This document shows, one piece after another, positions 24,661 to 31,570 of a DNA stretch of 64,000 bases. The DNA is from a bacterium (lineage in GTDB: Bacteria > Electryoneota > Electryoneia > Electryoneales > Electryoneaceae), in assembly GCA_963669175.1 (NCBI GenBank), contig OY769902.1, positions 3,968,001 through 4,032,000 of the forward strand, in the 5' to 3' direction. Position numbers and translations under genes: made by a program. How positions within the stretch are numbered: the stretch's first letter is position 1; the number at the start of each line of letters is the position of its first letter. Under the pieces are notes generated by a model. The model searched no databases. It worked only from the letters and a program-made list of their open reading frames with translations, and had not been told where the DNA came from.

Positions 24661-27600
24661 ATGCACCGTTGCTACCGTTTTCTGATTACTGCGATAGTCC
24701 TGACAGGTATCTTTTCCCTTCCCGCTTCTGGCGAAGTGTACGAGACCGGCTCGTTACGTGGTTTCATCCTGGGTGATGAACCAGCCTGTGCCTACGACAA
24801 CTGGTTTTCTCGTACCGTCGAAGGACTCGCAGTTGATGGTGGTTATAACGACCATATCCCCCCCGAACTTGATCCGCAAACACGTGGATTCGGGAATTTC
24901 GAATACATCGAAGAAGAAGATGCGGGCACCATGGAAGCGCTATGGCTGCATCTTTTTCAGGCATTGTGGCTCGGTGACCATGAGACGGCTGAAGGATTAA
25001 TCGGTGAGAATGAACTCCCTTACGAGTTTGTCTATTTCACAGACACAGAGACGGGCAATCAGTATTACATGTTGCGTGAATTGATTAACACCGCCTATGT
25101 GGATACAGGTTTTTACGCCGGTCCTGAAGATGATGTGATCGGCGGATTCGATTACGGTTGGGGTTTGTACATTGTTAATCCGGACGCTGAGTATCCGGGC
25201 GTAAATATCCAGGTTTGCCACGTCAATGACGACTTCATTGCCCCACCTTATGCCGTTGAGGCATTCCTTGAAGGTGATTTCAATTCACTGGCGCTTTGGG
25301 GAACCGGACGTGAAGTCATGTCGGTGGAAGGTGAAGATTACAACAACAGTCGTTCCCTGTCTGACCCGTCGCGAAACGGCAACCTGCCGTTCCAGTGGTT
25401 TACCGAGTTTTTCGTGGATACAACACGGAGCCAGGGACTGCATGACCTGGTAATACAGGTACACAGTTATGACACTGAATCCCACAACGGCGAGCCAACC
25501 CTGCAAGTCAGCGGCGGCAATGCAGACGGCTATCCGAACCGTCCCACACGCGACCTGTCCTATACGGGTTTTGATTGGGTGAATTGCTGTCCGACAATTA
25601 TGGTTCCGGCCAATTATTGCATGGAAGGTCAGGAGGAAGTTGAAGTCCAGGAAATGTTCGCCATCTGGCGTGGTTGGGGTGTCACTCACATTGAAAGTGG
25701 TGCAGGTATTTCCCGTGATTGCTATTTACCAGGATACCCGGACAGTCCGCAGATGTGGACTTGCAGAGAGAACACCAATTCTTATGAGACCTATGATCAC
25801 TGGCTGCATTTTGAATTGGATGAGCTTCCCTGGGCTTTGCAGGATGCTGAAATTACCGAGCTTGAATACTACGCCGGCACAGCGCCGCCAACAGAAGCGA
25901 ACTGGGCTGCATTTCTTCGCTATTTCGAGACAAGTTTAGAAGGCCTGGTTCAGAGCGTACATAACATGTACGAGTACCTGGATGAGACACCGCCAACCGC
26001 ACCACAATCTCCCTATATCTACTATGCCGGTGATAACTTCATGGAAATCGGCTGGAGTACACGTTCCTATGATCCCTATTTCCAGGCCTATGAGGTTTAT
26101 TTCGGAACCACGGAAACTATTAATCTGGACAACACTCTCTGGACAATACAGAACGACCCGAACCTGGTAGGGCAAAACCTTCAGTATACACGCGTTGAAG
26201 GATTGACACCCATGCAGAGTTATGGATTCCGGGTACGCGGTGTTGACATGTCCGGCAATGTGAGTGAATTGAGTACTGCGACCGCTTGGGGATTCAGCCA
26301 GGAAGGCAGCGCTTCTCCCCTGGCATTTGACCTGTTTGCACCGACCAGCGGCGACACCTGCCATACCCTGGATACGACACTGGTCTGGTACAGCACATCT
26401 GACCCGGATTTGTACGATATCCCCCGTTATGATGTATGGATGGATACGCTGGCAAACATGTCAACCATGTGGATGGTTGCGGATGGCGACAGCATCCAGG
26501 ATACTACAATTGATGTCAGCGGCCTGCTGAACTTCAAGGATTATTACTGGACTGTTCGCGCCACGGACCGGAACACGGAAGGCACATGGGCCAACGACAC
26601 CCTGTCTTTCCGGACCTACCGCCCGGTTCCACCAGCCGAATTCACGCAGGATTACCCGCTTGAACGCTCAACATTGTGGAACGTGGAAGAAACAGACCTG
26701 GTTTGGAATTCAACCTACGATCCGGATGGACTGGCCGATATCACTTACCAGGTATCCTGGGCAACAAATATAGAATTCACAGAGAATTACGGTTCATTCA
26801 CGACAACTGACACATTCACAACAATCGACGATCTGGAAATCAATGCTACCGTGTATTGGAGGGTCTTGGCCTGGGATAACCTGGACACGACCTGGACCGA
26901 CACATGGCGCTTTTATACCTGGACACCGGACTACCCAGAGTTTTCTCTTGACACTCCGACTGACGGAGAAACTGTCCTCAATGATACAGTAACAGTGACC
27001 TGGACTGCCCCGGAAACATCCTACCTGCCTGAAGATTTTGCATTGGCCGAACTGGATGAACAAACGTACGTAAATGCAGCCTTTGCTGACCTGCCAAAGG
27101 GGTCTGAGATTGCGTTCGGGGCTGGTGAATCCGAGCTGGATGATCATGGCGGTCCGGATTCCTTCGGACATGTCTGGATTGACAACAAGGAGCATGGCGG
27201 CCCGGCATTTGACTGGGTGGACATTTCCGAAATTGGAACCCTTTCAGATGCAAGCAATATCGATGATGGTTGCGCTCCGGCGACAATCCCCTTCCCGTTT
27301 ACCTATTATGGTGAGGAATACGAAACTGTCCATGTCGGTTCGAACGGAAACATGAACTTCCTCACCTCTGATGATGCCGACTGGAGCAATAGTGGCATCC
27401 CGAATGACGATGGTCCCTCCGCCATGATCGCACCGTTCTGGTGCGACCTGCGTCCGAATTATCGTGGCGACATCTACACCTGGGGTGACTCAACCATGTT
27501 TGTGGTGTCCTGGCTGAATATCCGTCAATACAGCCACGAAGAATGGGATTATTATTTCCAGGTAATCCTGTACCCTGACGGTATGATCAAGTTCCAGTAC

Positions 27601-29118
27601 CTGAACATGGACGGGGACCTGGATATCGCCTGTATCGGTATAGAGAACGGTGATGAGGATGACGGGTTGCAGGTTGTATACAATGCAGCGTACCTGGAAG
27701 ACAGGATCGCGATCCTCTTCACACCGGATGATTACCTGTATACGGTTGAATGGTCCGCTTCGGCAGAATTCGCACCCTCTACCCTTGAATACACACTGGA
27801 TAATGAATTCACCATTACCGATGTGGAAATTCAACAATTCCTTATACAGAACAGGTTGCTGGAAGAACTGGATGAACTTCCCGATGATATAACCATTTAC
27901 TGGCGTGTGAACACACGTAACTTGTACAGTCTTCGGAGTTTTGCAGCTCCCGGTATTAACGGCCAGACCTTCACAGTCTTTGTCCCGGAACCGCCGGTCG
28001 CTTTTGATATGGCCTACCCGGCAAATGAAGACACCGTTGTAACAGATACAGTGACAGTTGGCTGGAATGCAGCGTACGATCCAGATCCTGACGACACGTT
28101 GACGTACGTCGTTCAGTGGTCCCAAAACAGTGACTTCTCCGATTTTGCTGTGGCGACAACCCAAGATACTTTCCTGATCCTGACCGGAATGGATATGGAA
28201 GTATTCACCAGAAGCAACAGCTCAGAGTTTGCATCGGTTGCCCGTAAAAAGACGGCGCCACAAGCCATGCAGGTTAAGACCAAAAATCCATCCAAGGCCA
28301 GACAGATCTCGGGGACTGCCTTGTCAGGTGGTGCAACAGCGAATACACTTGACGAACTGGATGAGCTCCCGGATGACAGCCATATCTTCTGGCGGGTACA
28401 AGCGGTTGATGAGCTGAGAAACAGCGTATGGGCCAACCAGGGCACAGATGGCTGGTGGTTCCATGTGCAGGTGCCGGAACCGCCGCCTGCGTTCGCGCTA
28501 CTGGAACCGGAAAACGATGACACACTGGCTGTCGAAGAAGCCACCCCGGCCACACTTCGCTGGGAAGCGGCGAATGATCCGGACCCGAACGAAACAACCA
28601 GTTATAACCTGTATTACCAGTATACTCAGGGACAGGATACGGACACACTTTACTATAGCGATTTAGCAGACACAGCACTCGTCATCAACCTGGCGGACTC
28701 GCTGGGGATTGAGTATTGGGAAGAAACAATACAGGTCACCTGGTGGGTGCTGGCCGGTTCAGAAAATGACACAACGCAATGCGATGAGGATTTCATCTTC
28801 CACATCGCCCCGAATTCAGCAGTACCGGAAAAACCATTTGCAGGGATGCCAACGGAATACAGTATCGCAGCCCTGTACCCGAATCCGTTCAACCCGACAG
28901 CAACTGTGGTCGTGGGATTGCCCCAGGCCAGCCACCTGAAAGTACAGGTATACAACATTCTCGGTGAACTGGTTGAAACGGTTGTCAACAACGATATGCG
29001 AGCGGGGTATCACCGTCTGATCCTTGAGGGATCGAACTGGGCTTCCGGGCTCTATTTTGTTCGTGCCGAGAGTCCGGGACAGATGAATGAAGTACAGAGG
29101 ATTTTCCTGGTCAAATAA
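24661..29118 (+). CDS. Large T9SS-secreted multidomain protein (putative N-terminal Zn-hydrolase domain, FN3/Ig-like repeats, CTD)
   Basis: 1485 aa with a signal peptide, repeated YW.V.A FN3-like modules, a GGPDSFG module and a C-terminal LYPNPFNP...SGLYFVR sorting domain. Confidence 0.9.
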   Translation: MHRCYRFLITAIVLTGIFSLPASGEVYETGSLRGFILGDEPACAYDNWFSRTVEGLAVDGGYNDHIPPELDPQTRGFGNFEYIEEEDAGTMEALWLHLFQALWLGDHETAEGLIGENELPYEFVYFTDTETGNQYYMLRELINTAYVDTGFYAGPEDDVIGGFDYGWGLYIVNPDAEYPGVNIQVCHVNDDFIAPPYAVEAFLEGDFNSLALWGTGREVMSVEGEDYNNSRSLSDPSRNGNLPFQWFTEFFVDTTRSQGLHDLVIQVHSYDTESHNGEPTLQVSGGNADGYPNRPTRDLSYTGFDWVNCCPTIMVPANYCMEGQEEVEVQEMFAIWRGWGVTHIESGAGISRDCYLPGYPDSPQMWTCRENTNSYETYDHWLHFELDELPWALQDAEITELEYYAGTAPPTEANWAAFLRYFETSLEGLVQSVHNMYEYLDETPPTAPQSPYIYYAGDNFMEIGWSTRSYDPYFQAYEVYFGTTETINLDNTLWTIQNDPNLVGQNLQYTRVEGLTPMQSYGFRVRGVDMSGNVSELSTATAWGFSQEGSASPLAFDLFAPTSGDTCHTLDTTLVWYSTSDPDLYDIPRYDVWMDTLANMSTMWMVADGDSIQDTTIDVSGLLNFKDYYWTVRATDRNTEGTWANDTLSFRTYRPVPPAEFTQDYPLERSTLWNVEETDLVWNSTYDPDGLADITYQVSWATNIEFTENYGSFTTTDTFTTIDDLEINATVYWRVLAWDNLDTTWTDTWRFYTWTPDYPEFSLDTPTDGETVLNDTVTVTWTAPETSYLPEDFALAELDEQTYVNAAFADLPKGSEIAFGAGESELDDHGGPDSFGHVWIDNKEHGGPAFDWVDISEIGTLSDASNIDDGCAPATIPFPFTYYGEEYETVHVGSNGNMNFLTSDDADWSNSGIPNDDGPSAMIAPFWCDLRPNYRGDIYTWGDSTMFVVSWLNIRQYSHEEWDYYFQVILYPDGMIKFQYLNMDGDLDIACIGIENGDEDDGLQVVYNAAYLEDRIAILFTPDDYLYTVEWSASAEFAPSTLEYTLDNEFTITDVEIQQFLIQNRLLEELDELPDDITIYWRVNTRNLYSLRSFAAPGINGQTFTVFVPEPPVAFDMAYPANEDTVVTDTVTVGWNAAYDPDPDDTLTYVVQWSQNSDFSDFAVATTQDTFLILTGMDMEVFTRSNSSEFASVARKKTAPQAMQVKTKNPSKARQISGTALSGGATANTLDELDELPDDSHIFWRVQAVDELRNSVWANQGTDGWWFHVQVPEPPPAFALLEPENDDTLAVEEATPATLRWEAANDPDPNETTSYNLYYQYTQGQDTDTLYYSDLADTALVINLADSLGIEYWEETIQVTWWVLAGSENDTTQCDEDFIFHIAPNSAVPEKPFAGMPTEYSIAALYPNPFNPTATVVVGLPQASHLKVQVYNILGELVETVVNNDMRAGYHRLILEGSNWASGLYFVRAESPGQMNEVQRIFLVK

Positions 29119-29217
29119 GGAAATACTTCCGGTAGGTTTGGCGATTTGCTTCTTGTTTGCGACCTTTGTATTCGGGTTGGCAATCGGAAGCGATCGCGTA
29201 ACATGCTGGAGGACAAG

Positions 29218-30051
29218 ATGTTACATACTTCAACGAGCCTGTATGACCGGTGTATGGAGAAGACGCCGGAGCAGGTGTTTGTGAACTCGCTTCGTCGCGA
29301 GTTTGAGCTTTCACCGGCTGCGAGTACGGGGATATTGGAGCTTGCCAAGCGTTGTTTGTTCGGTACGATGCCGTCAACGCTTGGCAAGCTTCGTTTTTTA
29401 TGTGCGTCCAAGAAAGCTCGTCACGGTCGTCCCTTACGCGAACAAGACCTGATTCGTGTCGAACTGACACTGGATGACGGTGTTGAGGACTTGGATGTTC
29501 TGCGCGAACTGGGCGCTTCATCGCTTCGTCAGCAACGGATTCTTCGGCTAACCGAAGAGACGTACCAGCAGGGTGGGTTGCTGACACAGGAGGATCTGAG
29601 TCGTCTGCTGCACGTTTCAGATCGGACCATCCGCAAGGATATTGCGTTGCTGCTTGCTGACGGGAATACGGTGCATACGCGTGGCTACGACCATGACATT
29701 GGGCGTGGGTTATCGCACAAGGCACGGATCGTTGATTTGTACCTGGGTGGCCGGACCTATGATGAGATCATCCGTCTGACACGTCACAGCGCGTTTGCGA
29801 TCAAGCGCTATGTGAGTACGTTTGGACGCTTGTTGCTTCTGCTTAGCCATGACATTACCGAGCTGACCGACCTGAGCCGTCTGCTTCAACAGAGCGAACG
29901 GTTGACGGGTGAGTACCTGGATCTGTTTGCAAAATACAAACAGGGTGATCACTGGCCGACAAGCTATGTCGAACTTCTGGAGCAGTTGCAAGCACAGTAT
30001 CCCTCAAAAAAAAGAGCGGGACAAGGTGGCGGAGGCGTCCATGAAAACTGA
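29218..30051 (+). CDS. DUF1670-like protein A
   Basis: GGAGG RBS before the ATG at 29218. Motifs QQGGLLTQEDLSRLL (HTH), TRG..HDIG, SHK and H...RY. Confidence 0.85.
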   Translation: MLHTSTSLYDRCMEKTPEQVFVNSLRREFELSPAASTGILELAKRCLFGTMPSTLGKLRFLCASKKARHGRPLREQDLIRVELTLDDGVEDLDVLRELGASSLRQQRILRLTEETYQQGGLLTQEDLSRLLHVSDRTIRKDIALLLADGNTVHTRGYDHDIGRGLSHKARIVDLYLGGRTYDEIIRLTRHSAFAIKRYVSTFGRLLLLLSHDITELTDLSRLLQQSERLTGEYLDLFAKYKQGDHWPTSYVELLEQLQAQYPSKKRAGQGGGGVHEN

Positions 30052-30871
30052 GGTACGGAACCGTTATGAATCCCTGCCGAAGCGGAACTTTCGCACTGCG
30101 ATCATCCGGTTGTTGGAAGAGCAGTACAAGATTCTTGGCAGCCACAAGGTCTTGGCCATGGTGGCGGATGACATCATGCAACTGCACCGTGAGTTCTATC
30201 CGGATATCGAGCAACGCAGCGGTGGCAGTATTGTGTGGCGTACGACAGGTGCACAGTGCCACAAGCCCAGCTATGGGACACGGGTAGAAGACTATGAGGT
30301 GAAGACCGTCATTCTTCCGCTTGTCACTGAAGAAGATGTGGTTGATCGTATTCGTCGCCACTATGGAAAAGACGGTGCGGGCAAACAGCGCGACAGGGAT
30401 ATTGCAGTGCTGGCGCGGTTGGTGAAAAGCGCGTACGAACAAGGCGGGTTATTAAGCGGCGCGGAATTGAGTGTGTTGTTGAACCGGTCGCTGACGACCA
30501 TTGGCAAGTACATCCAACAGTATCATGAAACGCATGATGACATCCTGCCGACGAAAGGAATCATGTTGGACCAGGGAAGCCGTCCCACACACAAGGCCGC
30601 AATCATTGACCTGTACGAACAGGGCTATCCGGAACCGGATATCGCTCGCTTGACCACGCATACCCTTGAAGCGGTGGGTCGTTACTTGCGATCTTACAAA
30701 AACATCAAGTTCCTGATGGTCAAAGAACTTAATCTGATGGAAATTGTGCGTACTACCGGACTCGGACGTAGTACAGTGGTCCAATATCAGAAACTGGTGA
30801 TGCAGTATCATCCTGACCTTAAACCTAAAGATAAACAAAAAGATACAACGAAAAAGGACAAGAAAAAGTAA
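30041..30871 (+). CDS. DUF1670-like protein B (paralog of A)
   Basis: GGAGG RBS before the ATG at 30041, overlapping the end of A. Motifs EQGGLLS, PTKG..LDQG, THK and H...RY. Confidence 0.85.
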   Translation: MKTEVRNRYESLPKRNFRTAIIRLLEEQYKILGSHKVLAMVADDIMQLHREFYPDIEQRSGGSIVWRTTGAQCHKPSYGTRVEDYEVKTVILPLVTEEDVVDRIRRHYGKDGAGKQRDRDIAVLARLVKSAYEQGGLLSGAELSVLLNRSLTTIGKYIQQYHETHDDILPTKGIMLDQGSRPTHKAAIIDLYEQGYPEPDIARLTTHTLEAVGRYLRSYKNIKFLMVKELNLMEIVRTTGLGRSTVVQYQKLVMQYHPDLKPKDKQKDTTKKDKKK

Positions 30872-30940
30872 CCACTATCAACTGAAAACCTACCGGAAAT
30901 ATTTCCTAATAGTAAGTAGAACAGGTTTCAGATTCTAGAA

Positions 30941-30973
30941 CCTCGAGATCCCCGGTCAGGCTCGGGAATGACA
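30941..30973 (-). repeat. Solo REP-like palindrome (TGTCAT-CCC family)
   Basis: Reverse complement tgtcattcccgagcctgaccggggatctcgagg resembles the units of the 60366-60928 array. Confidence 0.7.
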
Positions 30974-31020
30974 TGATGGAACATGGTTGACAAGCTTTAC
31001 TGCTATTCCCTTCATTCACG

Positions 31021-31056
31021 AAAGCGGGACTGACATCGTTGTCAGTCCCGCTTTTT
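31021..31056. terminator. Bidirectional intrinsic terminator
   Basis: Perfect 15-bp stem aaagcgggactgaca-tcgt-tgtcagtcccgcttt between convergent units. Confidence 0.85.
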
Positions 31057-31075
31057 ATCTCAAAAAATCGTACTC

Positions 31076-31570
31076 TCAATCCTGTTTGACAATCTGCACC
31101 ATCTTGAACTCTTCCAGACGGTCAGTCCGTTTCACACGTTTGCCTTCGATAAGCGGCGGATGGTACCAGGCATAATCCACATGTCCCTGTGCGGATGCCA
31201 GGATCAGGCAATCCGGCTTGGCCACCTGGTACAGAAATTCGCTATCCTGAGGATTGGCGTAAGCATGAATTATTTTCGTCTTTTCATCGAGCCATGCCTT
31301 TCCTTTCCCGGAATGCAGACGTAACGCTACTCCCTTGGGAAGGACTCCATTCAGTTTGGCGACCAGCGCTTCTTTCTTTTCGACATTATCTCCAAAACCA
31401 ATATACACAAGATGCCTGATTTCCAAACCATCCAGCTTTACATCCTGCTGGCCGGGATTACGAATCTGCACCCATTCATCGTTCAGGATTTCGTTGGGTA
31501 CCCACTTGTTCATCCACGCATGCTTTTTTCGTGGTTGAACCATCGCAGCTTCAATAAAGATAACAGGCAT
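31076..31570 (-). CDS. Hypothetical protein, lamin-tail-domain-like
   Basis: EWVQIRNPGQQDVKLDGLEI resembles the LTD motif EWxExxN...VDLxG; no signal peptide. Confidence 0.65.
   Translation of the reverse strand: MPVIFIEAAMVQPRKKHAWMNKWVPNEILNDEWVQIRNPGQQDVKLDGLEIRHLVYIGFGDNVEKKEALVAKLNGVLPKGVALRLHSGKGKAWLDEKTKIIHAYANPQDSEFLYQVAKPDCLILASAQGHVDYAWYHPPLIEGKRVKRTDRLEEFKMVQIVKQD

Follow-up and report, generated by a model that had tools for sequence, protein, structure and literature searches.

ISx-1, a multicopy insertion sequence carrying two DUF1670 paralogues, is placed at the last codon of type IX secretion sorting-domain genes

A 64,000-nucleotide stretch of the forward strand of a bacterial genome of the family Electryoneaceae (phylum Electryoneota; NCBI GenBank assembly GCA_963669175.1, contig OY769902.1, positions 3,968,001 to 4,032,000), referred to here as the window, contains a compact mobile element for which we use the name ISx-1. 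It occupies positions 29113..30913 of the window (1801 bp, plus strand), the stretch from AAATAA to TAATAGT that is common to all seven near-identical copies in the genome (5.45 Mb, a single contig), and it lies at the exact 3' end of a gene whose product carries a sorting domain of the type IX secretion system (T9SS). An earlier note on this DNA had described an autonomous-looking insertion sequence (IS) whose only genes are two DUF1670-like paralogues, and had proposed these proteins as a candidate new class of transposase or recombinase.

The host gene is read on the plus strand and extends, up to its penultimate codon GTC, over 24661..29112; the open reading frame (ORF) that it now forms (24661..29118, 1485 aa) takes its last codon and its stop from the element. 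The C-terminal 120 aa of its product match TIGR04183 Por_Secre_tail (E 5.3e-09, 35.9 bits, cut-off 23). The element opens with the terminal hexamer AAA TAA (Lys and stop; 29113..29118, plus strand), which completes the interrupted gene, and continues with the left terminal inverted repeat (IR; 29119..29139, plus strand), made up of the near-palindromic 12-mer GGAAATACTTCC at 29119-29130 followed by GGTAGGTTT. At the opposite end, the right terminal IR (30886..30906, plus strand) is composed of AAACCTACC and the palindromic 12-mer GGAAATATTTCC. Outside it lies a 7-nt tail, TAATAGT (30907..30913, plus strand), which is constant in seven of seven near-identical copies. The six nucleotides that follow, AAG TAG (Lys and stop; 30914..30919, plus strand), represent the displaced native end of the host gene and belong to the flank rather than to the element.

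The inverted repeats reported in the earlier note were recovered both by inverted-repeat detection and in the sequence itself. The two 21-nt cores, GGAAATACTTCCGGTAGGTTT at 29119-29139 and its partner at 30886-30906, mismatch at one of 21 positions (20/21 identical) and are embedded in 25-nt arms (29115-29139 and 30886-30910) that are 92% complementary and form the sole long-range inverted repeat in 28800-31200. The TAA triplets outside the cores (29116-29118 and 30907-30909) are likewise present; their reading as a target-site duplication that bounds the element did not survive, as the left TAA is part of the element's AAA-TAA and the right one is part of the TAATAGT tail. In functional terms, the element runs from 29113 to 30913 and is not delimited by the TAAs. 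In each element end, a 12-mer palindrome of the GGAAATATTTCC type stands beside GGTAGGT, and its variants in relatives are compensatory (GGCAATATTGCC, GGAAGTACTTCC, GGAAGATCTTCC and GGACAT..ATGTCC). From their sequence, these palindromes would fit either a dimeric binding site or a hairpin.

Between the ends, a leader (29140..29217, plus strand) with two further IR-like CCGGA motifs, one at ~29181-29190 (CAATCGGAAG) and one at 29205-29212 (GCTGGAGG) that coincides with the Shine-Dalgarno (SD) region, precedes ORF A (29218..30051, plus strand, 277 aa) and ORF B (30041..30871, plus strand, 276 aa). As had been described, the two ORFs overlap (by 11 nt) and are equipped with ribosome-binding sites, a GGAGG-like site standing before each. 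Non-coding DNA is confined to ~105 nt at the left end of the element and ~42 nt at its right end. Two minus-strand ORFs of 204 and 195 aa within the element are not conserved in its relatives.

The element is not confined to the window. Seven full copies stand at seven unrelated loci of the genome, with 0, 0, 1, 1, 1, 4 and 5 differences over 1794 bp, and because the whole 1794-bp segment recurs seven times, the arrangement of IRs and ORFs is far beyond chance. An eighth copy, ISx-2 (C1:3751523-3753326, minus strand), shows 67% identity, and a left-end relic of 154 nt with 78% identity is found at C1:2071034-2071187 (L009). The 21-nt end, searched with at most one mismatch, has only 14 matches in the genome, which are the ends of the seven copies. 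A Logan unitig of 1803 bp (29113-30915), derived from a run containing the window (five sequencing runs from two studies are listed, none of them of RNA), corresponds to the element and has a depth of 156.8, compared with 28.6-29.1 for the flanks. That the IR-bounded element is multicopy and mobile is strongly supported. The picture of an autonomous-looking IS with two DUF1670 paralogues as its only conserved genes therefore holds for seven near-identical copies with IR ends, and the further copies for which the earlier note had suggested looking exist. From the copies, the ends and the target rule described below, we infer that the element transposes.

All eight copies are co-oriented with eight different ORFs and placed at their extreme ends, the tails of the products being of the form ...NPFN...(K/R)hhhLLK*. 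The last 120 aa of each of the eight abutting ORFs match TIGR04183, the T9SS type A sorting domain, with 29.0-53.6 bits (cut-off 23). The insertion is site- and orientation-specific: it separates the final codon, which encodes Lys (or, in some lineages, Arg), from the codon before it. A regular expression for the T9SS sorting domain matches ~317 gene ends in the genome, with final residues LK in 99, VK in 71, MK in 30, VR in 25, IK in 25 and LR in 16; with so many sorting-domain ORF ends, the secreted-protein repertoire of this organism is very large. No replication-strand bias is seen, three of eight copies being co-oriented with the leading strand versus 170 of 317 sorting-domain genes. The genome holds 13974 hexamers consisting of AAR and a stop codon; only 252 are preceded by (NTN)4, and nearly all of these are sorting-domain ends. 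Upstream of 57 distinct occupied sites, the base profile resembles that of 226 unoccupied sorting-domain genes ending in Lys, with some excess of ATG at -12..-10. If AAATAA+RTRR alone defined the target, the genome would offer 63 unoccupied sites, only two of them at the ends of sorting-domain genes. As a separate observation, tandem 9-nt repeats of the GTAAAGAAA / GGTAAAAAA type are located directly downstream of the stops of many sorting-domain genes, for example at L030:875-945 (G001:C5, the same-genus ortholog of the window target) and on G000:C1 near 2090142, 2093844, 3357370 and 4184316.

The same target was found among relatives from metagenomes, which were collected by a scan with an ORF A alignment (216 relatives, 80 loci kept) and compared with a sorting-domain hidden Markov model (HMM) built from 313 tails of this genome. 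In the kept loci, 58 left ends were recognised; an open upstream frame of at least 25 aa is present in 40, and 38 of these 40 match the HMM, the misses being L099 and L102. The remaining 18 left ends have shorter frames, 16 of them without enough flank and two with in-frame stops (L064 at 3983, and L087); the DNA upstream of the left ends of L102 and L064 (at 3983) is another element. In another genus (G010), a relative is inserted at ...KIVYMK*. When an IUPAC pattern of the left end was applied to one genome per species, at least 120 stretches were found, at least 55 of them at the ends of HMM-matching ORFs, and the others look like chance. Among the matches listed, the metagenome-assembled genomes that carry the element are assigned to Calditrichia, Caldithrix, Calditrichota, Ignavibacteria, Ignavibacteriales, Melioribacteraceae and Chlorobi, as well as to KSB1, Neomarinimicrobiota, Balneolales and Bacteroidetes/Bacteroidota.

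The junctions follow a strict hexamer rule. On the left, the hexamer is AAATAA in eight of eight genome copies; the codons before it vary (GTC, CTG, TTA, TTA, CTG, TTG and CTA). On the right, the hexamer after the tail is AAGTAG in one, AAATAG in four and AAGTGA in two of the seven near-identical copies, and AAGTAG in ISx-2, in each case Lys and stop; beyond these six nucleotides, the right flanks of the copies have nothing in common. Because the copies otherwise differ at no more than 5 of 1794 positions, the variable right hexamer is flank and the constant AAATAA is element. The 58 metagenomic left ends carry AAATAA (51), AGATAA (3), CGATAA (2), AAATGA (1) or AAGTAA (1), all of which encode Lys or Arg followed by a stop. 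The tail in metagenomic relatives is a 7-mer of the same type, e.g., TAATAGA (15), TAATAGT (14), TAAACGT (6) and TAAGAGT (5), and it reads GAAACGT in the diverged copy ISx-2. From 43 pairs of left and right ends, two were dropped as internal chance matches (1691 bp, non-TAA tail), which leaves 41 complete metagenomic elements. In 36 of them both hexamers are Lys-stop and in two both are Arg-stop; the three exceptions have right hexamers one or two bases off the pattern (L085 AACTGG, L088 AGCTAG, L104 TAGTAG). There are no mixed Lys/Arg pairs among the 41, and the left and right hexamers are identical in 13 of 41, compared with none of eight in this genome. In a distant subgroup (43-46% identity), the right hexamer is Arg-stop in seven of seven, and the left one is CGATAA in the two loci where both ends are seen. 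The ortholog of the window target in the same-genus genome G001 ends in AGG TAG, one base from the displaced AAG TAG. In a side observation on two metagenomic loci, L092 and L095 are alike in host gene tail and element, and differ in the right hexamer (AAATAA vs AAATAG) and in the downstream DNA.

Judged from the reading frames, the element adds a new Lys or Arg codon and TAA and leaves the native pair just downstream, so that the predicted host protein is unchanged. A target-site duplication is absent, or amounts to at most 2 bp (AA) at Lys-type sites, and is impossible for CGATAA/AGGTAG pairs. A 3-bp duplication of TAA was rejected on the grounds that the tails of relatives continue with AAA.. 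and that the right hexamer is variable. The Lys/Arg match between the element head and the target suggests that one reader could recognise both hexamers.

Traces of past insertions and of related elements point to the same sites. Solo left-end scars, seen in many genomes, in which the hexamer and 17-170 nt of the left end directly follow a sorting-domain gene and then give way to unrelated DNA, are present at G000:C1:800628-800654, G000:C1:2946981-2947010 and in the relic L009, and also in L152, L157, L183, L192, L194, L204 and L209. It seems that decay of the element is common and that its loss leaves the borrowed stop codon in place; the retained hexamer would fit selection for that stop. 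A second lineage of two-ORF DUF1670 elements (L102:172-1980 and L064:2197-3976) encodes A and B proteins that are ~32% identical to those of ISx-1 and ends in 12-bp repeats (TATCAAATGACC) unlike the repeats of ISx-1. A second-lineage element lies between two first-lineage copies, flanked by AAATAG and AAATAA and with its genes on the opposite strand, a position that shows stacking of elements at shared Lys-stop hexamers. The motif TATCA[AT]ATGA also occurs 3' of the right hexamer in L060, L068, L069, L090 and L113. Terminal inverted repeats, for which the earlier note proposed to survey the flanks of DUF1670 gene pairs, are present in the collected loci and co-vary with the DUF1670 genes across metagenomic lineages, including the 32%-identical one. 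In another family of the phylum, a degenerate relative (L035:1-2300, G043:C207) has a frameshift that breaks the N-terminus of ORF A, carries A and B in one frame across an A-run, and has a right end that reads TAATAGA and then AAGTAG.

The protein family itself is patchily distributed in the phylum and broad beyond it. Of 79 genomes of the phylum, three contain PF07900, this one included; it was not found in the same-genus G001 (92% complete, 390 contigs), in which a repeat could have stayed unassembled. It also matches in a control genome, that of Methanosarcina acetivorans, and look-alike DUF1670 clusters come from Bacteroidota, Chloroflexota, Planctomycetota and other bacterial phyla as well as from methanogenic archaea. 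Most of the 469 homologs of ORF A at E<=1e-3 sit on contigs of 1.0-2.5 kb, and several of these contigs measure 1793-1808 bp, while distant DUF1670 representatives lie on contigs of 1.7-2.1 kb; element-sized contigs of this kind are the usual signature of repeats that break assemblies. A single-protein search of genome contigs gave no relative, and tblastn against plasmids gave no match.

Both proteins belong to DUF1670. Their assignment to this family, originally made by eye, was borne out by an HMM search with PF07900 (gathering threshold 25 bits), which ORF A matches with E 2e-45 (155.3 bits) and ORF B with E 9e-49 (166.2 bits). Other Pfam matches are sub-threshold or marginal helix-turn-helix (HTH) families; ORF A matches HTH_11 with E 1.7e-07. 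ORF A is a DUF1670 paralogue with winged-HTH and HTH modules; ORF B is a full-length one, with an N-terminal alpha/beta domain followed by three HTH-like modules. Profile-profile alignment (hhalign) establishes A and B as mutual paralogues (probability 99.95%, 238 aligned columns, 23% identity), with the common motif RG..D.G...[ST]HK...H[ST]...RY. ORF B has 749 representatives at E<=1e-3. Comparison with ISx-2 indicates purifying selection on both genes, the proportions of nonsynonymous and synonymous changes (pN and pS) being 0.269 and 0.651 for ORF A and 0.215 and 0.734 for ORF B. H184 and Y215 do not vary in a set of 75 diverse ORF B-type sequences, in which G62, L92, R126, A131, L138, P170, G173, D177, G179, K185, H207 and Y249 are at least 90% conserved; D177 is the sole acidic residue at that level, and position 183 is Ser or Thr. 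The AlphaFold2 model of ORF B, built on this 75-sequence alignment (pLDDT 90.3, pTM 0.75), places an alpha-alpha-beta-beta-alpha domain at residues 1-110 and three HTH-like modules after it.

In accordance with the earlier note, no known transposase chemistry is recognisable from the families above cut-off in Pfam and NCBIfam. An RNase H-like core with a D,D,E triad is absent from the family matches in both databases and from the folds among the Foldseek and VIA-align matches. Tyrosine recombinases give no family or fold match, and the conserved R, K, H and Y stand in another order, inside HTH modules. For serine recombinases and IS607, there is only the C-terminal HTH_7 (E 0.0044, below cut-off) and no catalytic-domain match. 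HUH Y1 enzymes give no family match, and no conserved H-hydrophobic-H is common to both paralogues; the DEDD transposases of IS110 give no NCBIfam family match. PADLOC and PHROGs return matches at the HTH level only, and the ESM Atlas, searched with PF07900 excluded, scores no higher than 0.81, with small archaeal HTH proteins, which we treat as a lead only. In source annotations, the homologs are named 'hypothetical', 'biotin operon repressor', 'CsgD family regulator', 'predicted transcriptional regulator' or 'DUF1670 domain-containing'.

The two genes are linked by a putative site of programmed slippage, an A8 run (30006..30013, plus strand) that would yield an A-B fusion by shifting translation of ORF A into the ORF B frame. 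Of 44 elements (2 from the genome and 42 metagenomic), 43 have such a run, A8 or A9, 25-45 nt ahead of the stop of ORF A; there are 23 A9, 20 A8 and one A6. The whole 5.45-Mb genome contains only 113 runs of at least eight A and 98 of at least eight T. Relative to ORF A, the frame of ORF B is +1 in 27 elements (23 with A9 and 4 with A8) and -1 in 17; in the window it is open from 29909, and in other elements it is open across the A-run or from it. The second lineage, 32% identical, has an A_AAA_AAG heptamer with B in the -1 frame. Natural fusions are also known: proteins of 527-546 aa contain two DUF1670 units, and proteins of 930-952 aa contain at least three, in both cases without another domain. 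Those with at least three units (P0147, P0149, P0157 and P0158) lie on contigs of ~3.5 kb and may represent the A/B machinery in a single chain. Slippage on the A-run probably fuses A and B, in analogy to IS1 and IS3, and a low-level A-B fusion is probably the active form. For separate chains, the predicted A+B complex has an ipSAE of 0.37 versus 0.01 for the best control, with contacts that agree to at least 52% between runs and a partner pLDDT of at least 64. The model hints weakly that A and B bind each other. Of 80 solved complexes, 58 attain the ipSAE mark for such a verdict, as do 2 of 110 mismatched pairs; among those passing, a value of 0.60 or less is seen in only 7 of the 80 solved complexes and in both mismatches. 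The joint function of A and B suggested in the earlier note remains plausible in view of the natural fusions, the conserved A-run and this weakly supportive complex prediction.

Expression may also be limited by the leader, in which the inner IR motif recurs twice, as ..GTAACCGGAA.. and as ..CTAACCGGAGG, with the SD inside the second. Consensus folding of 32 leaders with RNAalifold pairs the inner half of the left IR with the SD region (alignment columns 13-24 with 98-112) in 12 base pairs, two of them with compensatory changes; it is the only structure that consensus folding found in the leader (Rfam was not searched). Fold-back inhibition of translation is known from IS10. By analogy, the stem could block translation from host-gene read-through transcripts, or else the motifs could be extra protein sites. 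Beyond the element by ~110 nt, inverted-repeat detection and the sequence reveal a perfect 15-bp hairpin with a T-rich tail after it (31021..31054, plus strand). This hairpin, which is not listed by a consensus terminator scan, is probably the terminator of the host gene, now downstream of the element; the scan for promoter and terminator consensus gave no signal above that of shuffled sequences.

The target rule, the borrowed stop codon, the missing duplication and the recoding signal sharpen the reading of ISx-1 as an IS, which is strongly supported. We consider it likely that ISx-1 belongs to an active, autonomous-looking, site-specific and seamless IS family in which the DUF1670 proteins would serve as the recombination machinery, and our best reading is that this family is new relative to the literature, Pfam and NCBIfam (ISfinder lies outside this comparison). 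A bolder proposal, to which we give slightly less than an even chance, is that DUF1670 constitutes a new recombinase or transposase class, in which HTH modules and a small domain unmatched among solved structures would act as an A/B hetero-oligomer or A-B fusion to carry out seamless, hexamer-programmed insertion. We infer that the DUF1670 proteins themselves cut and join DNA.

In the mechanism that we propose, ORF A, ORF B and the slippage-made A-B fusion would bind the palindromic 12-mers of both ends. Both junctions have the form N^AA(A/R)T(A/R)(A/R), and a break on the 5' side of the AAR-TRR-type hexamer in each of them would make excision precise and scar-free, with the penultimate codon rejoined to the native Lys-stop. 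The freed element would probably be a circle in which the palindromes are 13 nt apart (the 7-nt tail and the 6-nt head), and this circle would enter another sorting-domain gene immediately 5' of its Lys/Arg-stop hexamer, the target being recognised through the periodicity of hydrophobic codons, (NTN)4, and the hexamer. Since insertion would take place inside a host transcription unit, upstream of a terminator-like hairpin, the element could ride on host transcription. Seamless, duplication-free products are typical of tyrosine, serine, HUH or IS110-type recombination and not of DDE enzymes; the seamless outcome of ISx-1 therefore favours conservative recombination over DDE-type transposition, and breakage and joining would proceed via a covalent protein-DNA intermediate. 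That the chemistry takes place on the conserved polar motif is the version we favour, as a roughly even call, with G173, D177, G179, [S/T]183-H184-K185, H207 and R214-Y215 of ORF B as candidate active-site residues.

Several observations weigh against such a role. Apart from DUF1670 and HTH families, no transposase or recombinase family in Pfam or NCBIfam is above cut-off; the best NCBIfam transposase model, IS21, reaches E 0.052 over an HTH. Foldseek against the PDB gave no match at E<=1e-3 for the whole ORF B or for its N-terminal domain; modelled alone (pLDDT 86.7), that domain has a best Foldseek match that is HU/IHF-like (E 0.5) and a best VIA-align Z of 3.8. For the whole protein, VIA-align against 48161 chains returned HTH and winged-helix matches only (Z <=6.7). 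These include the winged-helix domain of topoisomerase VI-A/Spo11 (Z 6.2 and 5.3), the domain that bears the catalytic Tyr of those enzymes; no conserved Tyr lies in the matched region. A sequence profile search of the PDB found only the designed repeat protein 8vd6, whose alignment renders the C-terminal half of ORF B as two tandem HTH-like repeats with Y215 equivalent to the conserved Y249, so the invariant Y215 may be structural. H207, R214 and Y215 occupy the beginning of what may be a recognition helix, where their role could be DNA contact only. Traces of movement are missing as well: no contig spans an empty site in the Logan contigs of four runs (one of which gave no contigs), direct joining of the left flank to the right flank has no match in the collected loci and the genome, and abutted right-end/left-end junctions, indicative of a circle or tandem, are absent from the collected loci, with only chance matches of the regular expression in the genome. 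The search for empty sites suggested in the earlier note thus found none in the same-genus genome, the Logan contigs, the collected loci or the genome. Two candidates were set aside: the G001 ortholog, which is 66-79% identical, ends in ...MMLVR* (AGG TAG) and has a different downstream region, and AAATAGTAA, whose 40 occurrences are not at the ends of sorting-domain genes.

The same absence of a catalytic fold gives the main rival its substance, namely that DUF1670 only recognises ends and target, providing synapsis and specificity, and that a host enzyme, e.g., a Xer-type tyrosine recombinase, cuts and joins, much as XerCD does for the elements that hijack it. The proteins have the look of DNA binders made of HTH modules alone, their conserved Tyr is perhaps structural, conservative host recombinases yield seamless and duplication-free insertions, and palindromic ends around an AT-rich spacer resemble the layout of a recombinase core site. 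We nonetheless regard a host enzyme as unlikely, if well worth keeping in view: the family occurs in archaea and many bacterial phyla, so the partner would need to be universal; the polar motif G..D.G...[ST]HK...H...RY is strict in both paralogues (75 diverse sequences), beyond the usual demands of DNA binding; and there are eight different insertion sites rather than one dif-like site, nor was a resemblance of the ends to a dif site noticed (no test aimed at it was made). Chemistry aside, the element could belong to an IS family that is already catalogued, for instance an ISNCY-type orphan in ISfinder, since orphan IS groups with unclassified transposases exist. This appears rather improbable to us, given that a full-text search of the literature gave no mention of DUF1670 or PF07900, that no NCBIfam transposase model is above cut-off, and that homologs are named only as hypothetical, regulator or DUF1670 proteins. 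The literature search also gave no IS described as targeting T9SS sorting-domain genes.

Two further explanations would remove the DUF1670 proteins from the movement altogether. With no catalytic domain found in it, ISx-1 might be a non-autonomous element that an unlinked conventional transposase moves in trans, its HTH proteins being passenger regulators. We give this very little weight, as the genome has no other element with these ends (GGAAATAYTTCCGGTAGG), the 21-nt end matching only the seven copies at up to one mismatch; moreover, the ends co-vary with the DUF1670 genes, even in the 32%-identical lineage with its quite different 12-bp repeats, and the ORFs show purifying selection together with a recoding signal of the IS type. 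Spread by homologous recombination or gene conversion among sorting-domain paralogues, with the gene end as homology arm, draws on the fact that all copies stand beside members of one large paralogous family (317 matches of the regular expression); it is the least credible of all, as the left flanks differ up to the junction, the right flanks are alike only in the 6-nt hexamer, and the junctions are base-exact in eight copies and dozens of metagenomic relatives.

The following known systems are the closest to ISx-1. IS110/IS1111 elements use a DEDD transposase with a bridge RNA and insert in a site- and orientation-specific manner without duplication. ISx-1 resembles them in its site and orientation specificity at a short sequence of multiple occurrence, in the lack of duplication, and in precise junctions that imply a circular or abutted-end intermediate; it differs in that no DEDD/RuvC-like transposase is detected and in its clear terminal IRs, short non-coding ends and two HTH-only ORFs. 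The IS200/IS605 elements move by 'peel and paste' with the HUH Y1 enzyme TnpA. Like them, ISx-1 lies seamlessly, without duplication, beside a fixed short motif of a type common to the element end and the target, and has palindromes at both ends; unlike them, it has no HUH motif or Y1 domain match, true IRs, palindrome stems of only 4-6 bp and no replication-strand bias. Insertion at gene ends that spares the host product is known from Tn7, through TnsD and attTn7, and from integrases that restore tRNA 3' ends. ISx-1 similarly reads a conserved gene end, leaves the host product unharmed and carries a replacement end. In contrast to these systems, it has hundreds of targets per genome instead of one, a replacement of only 6 nt, and no match to TnsABCD or to tyrosine and serine integrases.

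IS1 and IS3 combine overlapping ORFs and an A-rich slippery run, which yields a fusion protein, with terminal IRs. ISx-1 shares the two overlapping ORFs with an upstream HTH protein, the A-rich slippery run, the terminal IRs and an IR able to pair with the ribosome-binding site, whereas its downstream ORF has no DDE/RNase H match and is paralogous to ORF A, and its insertion leaves no duplication and is extremely specific for its target. For recoding, the literature includes a review (PMC5009743) and the paper on IS1447 (PMC6211511). Elements of the IS1202 family, as summarised in the abstract of the report on them, target dif/pdif sites and have terminal IRs and a fixed position and orientation (PMC10132070). 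At the level of that abstract, ISx-1 is similar in its terminal IRs and in a position and orientation fixed relative to a conserved host site, and distinct in that its proteins match no transposase model and its target is a coding end, not a recombination site.

These findings provide a testable function for a widespread family, DUF1670, of which ORF B alone has 749 representative clusters at E<=1e-3. If its proteins indeed catalyse the reactions, they would constitute a transposase or recombinase class without a known catalytic fold that is compact (a fusion of ~550 aa), seamless and highly site-specific, and would be of interest both for mechanism and for genome engineering; if, in addition, the hexamer match is read by base identity, the target could be re-programmable via six nucleotides of the element end. 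The design, found in no searched paper, is that of an IS for which the conserved 3' ends of T9SS cargo genes, of which there are hundreds, are harmless places to insert, the interrupted gene being mended by a last codon and stop that the IS supplies. Annotation is affected as well: DUF1670 genes are now labelled as regulators or hypothetical proteins, the elements break metagenome assemblies, and element scars provide the stop codons of many secreted-protein genes.

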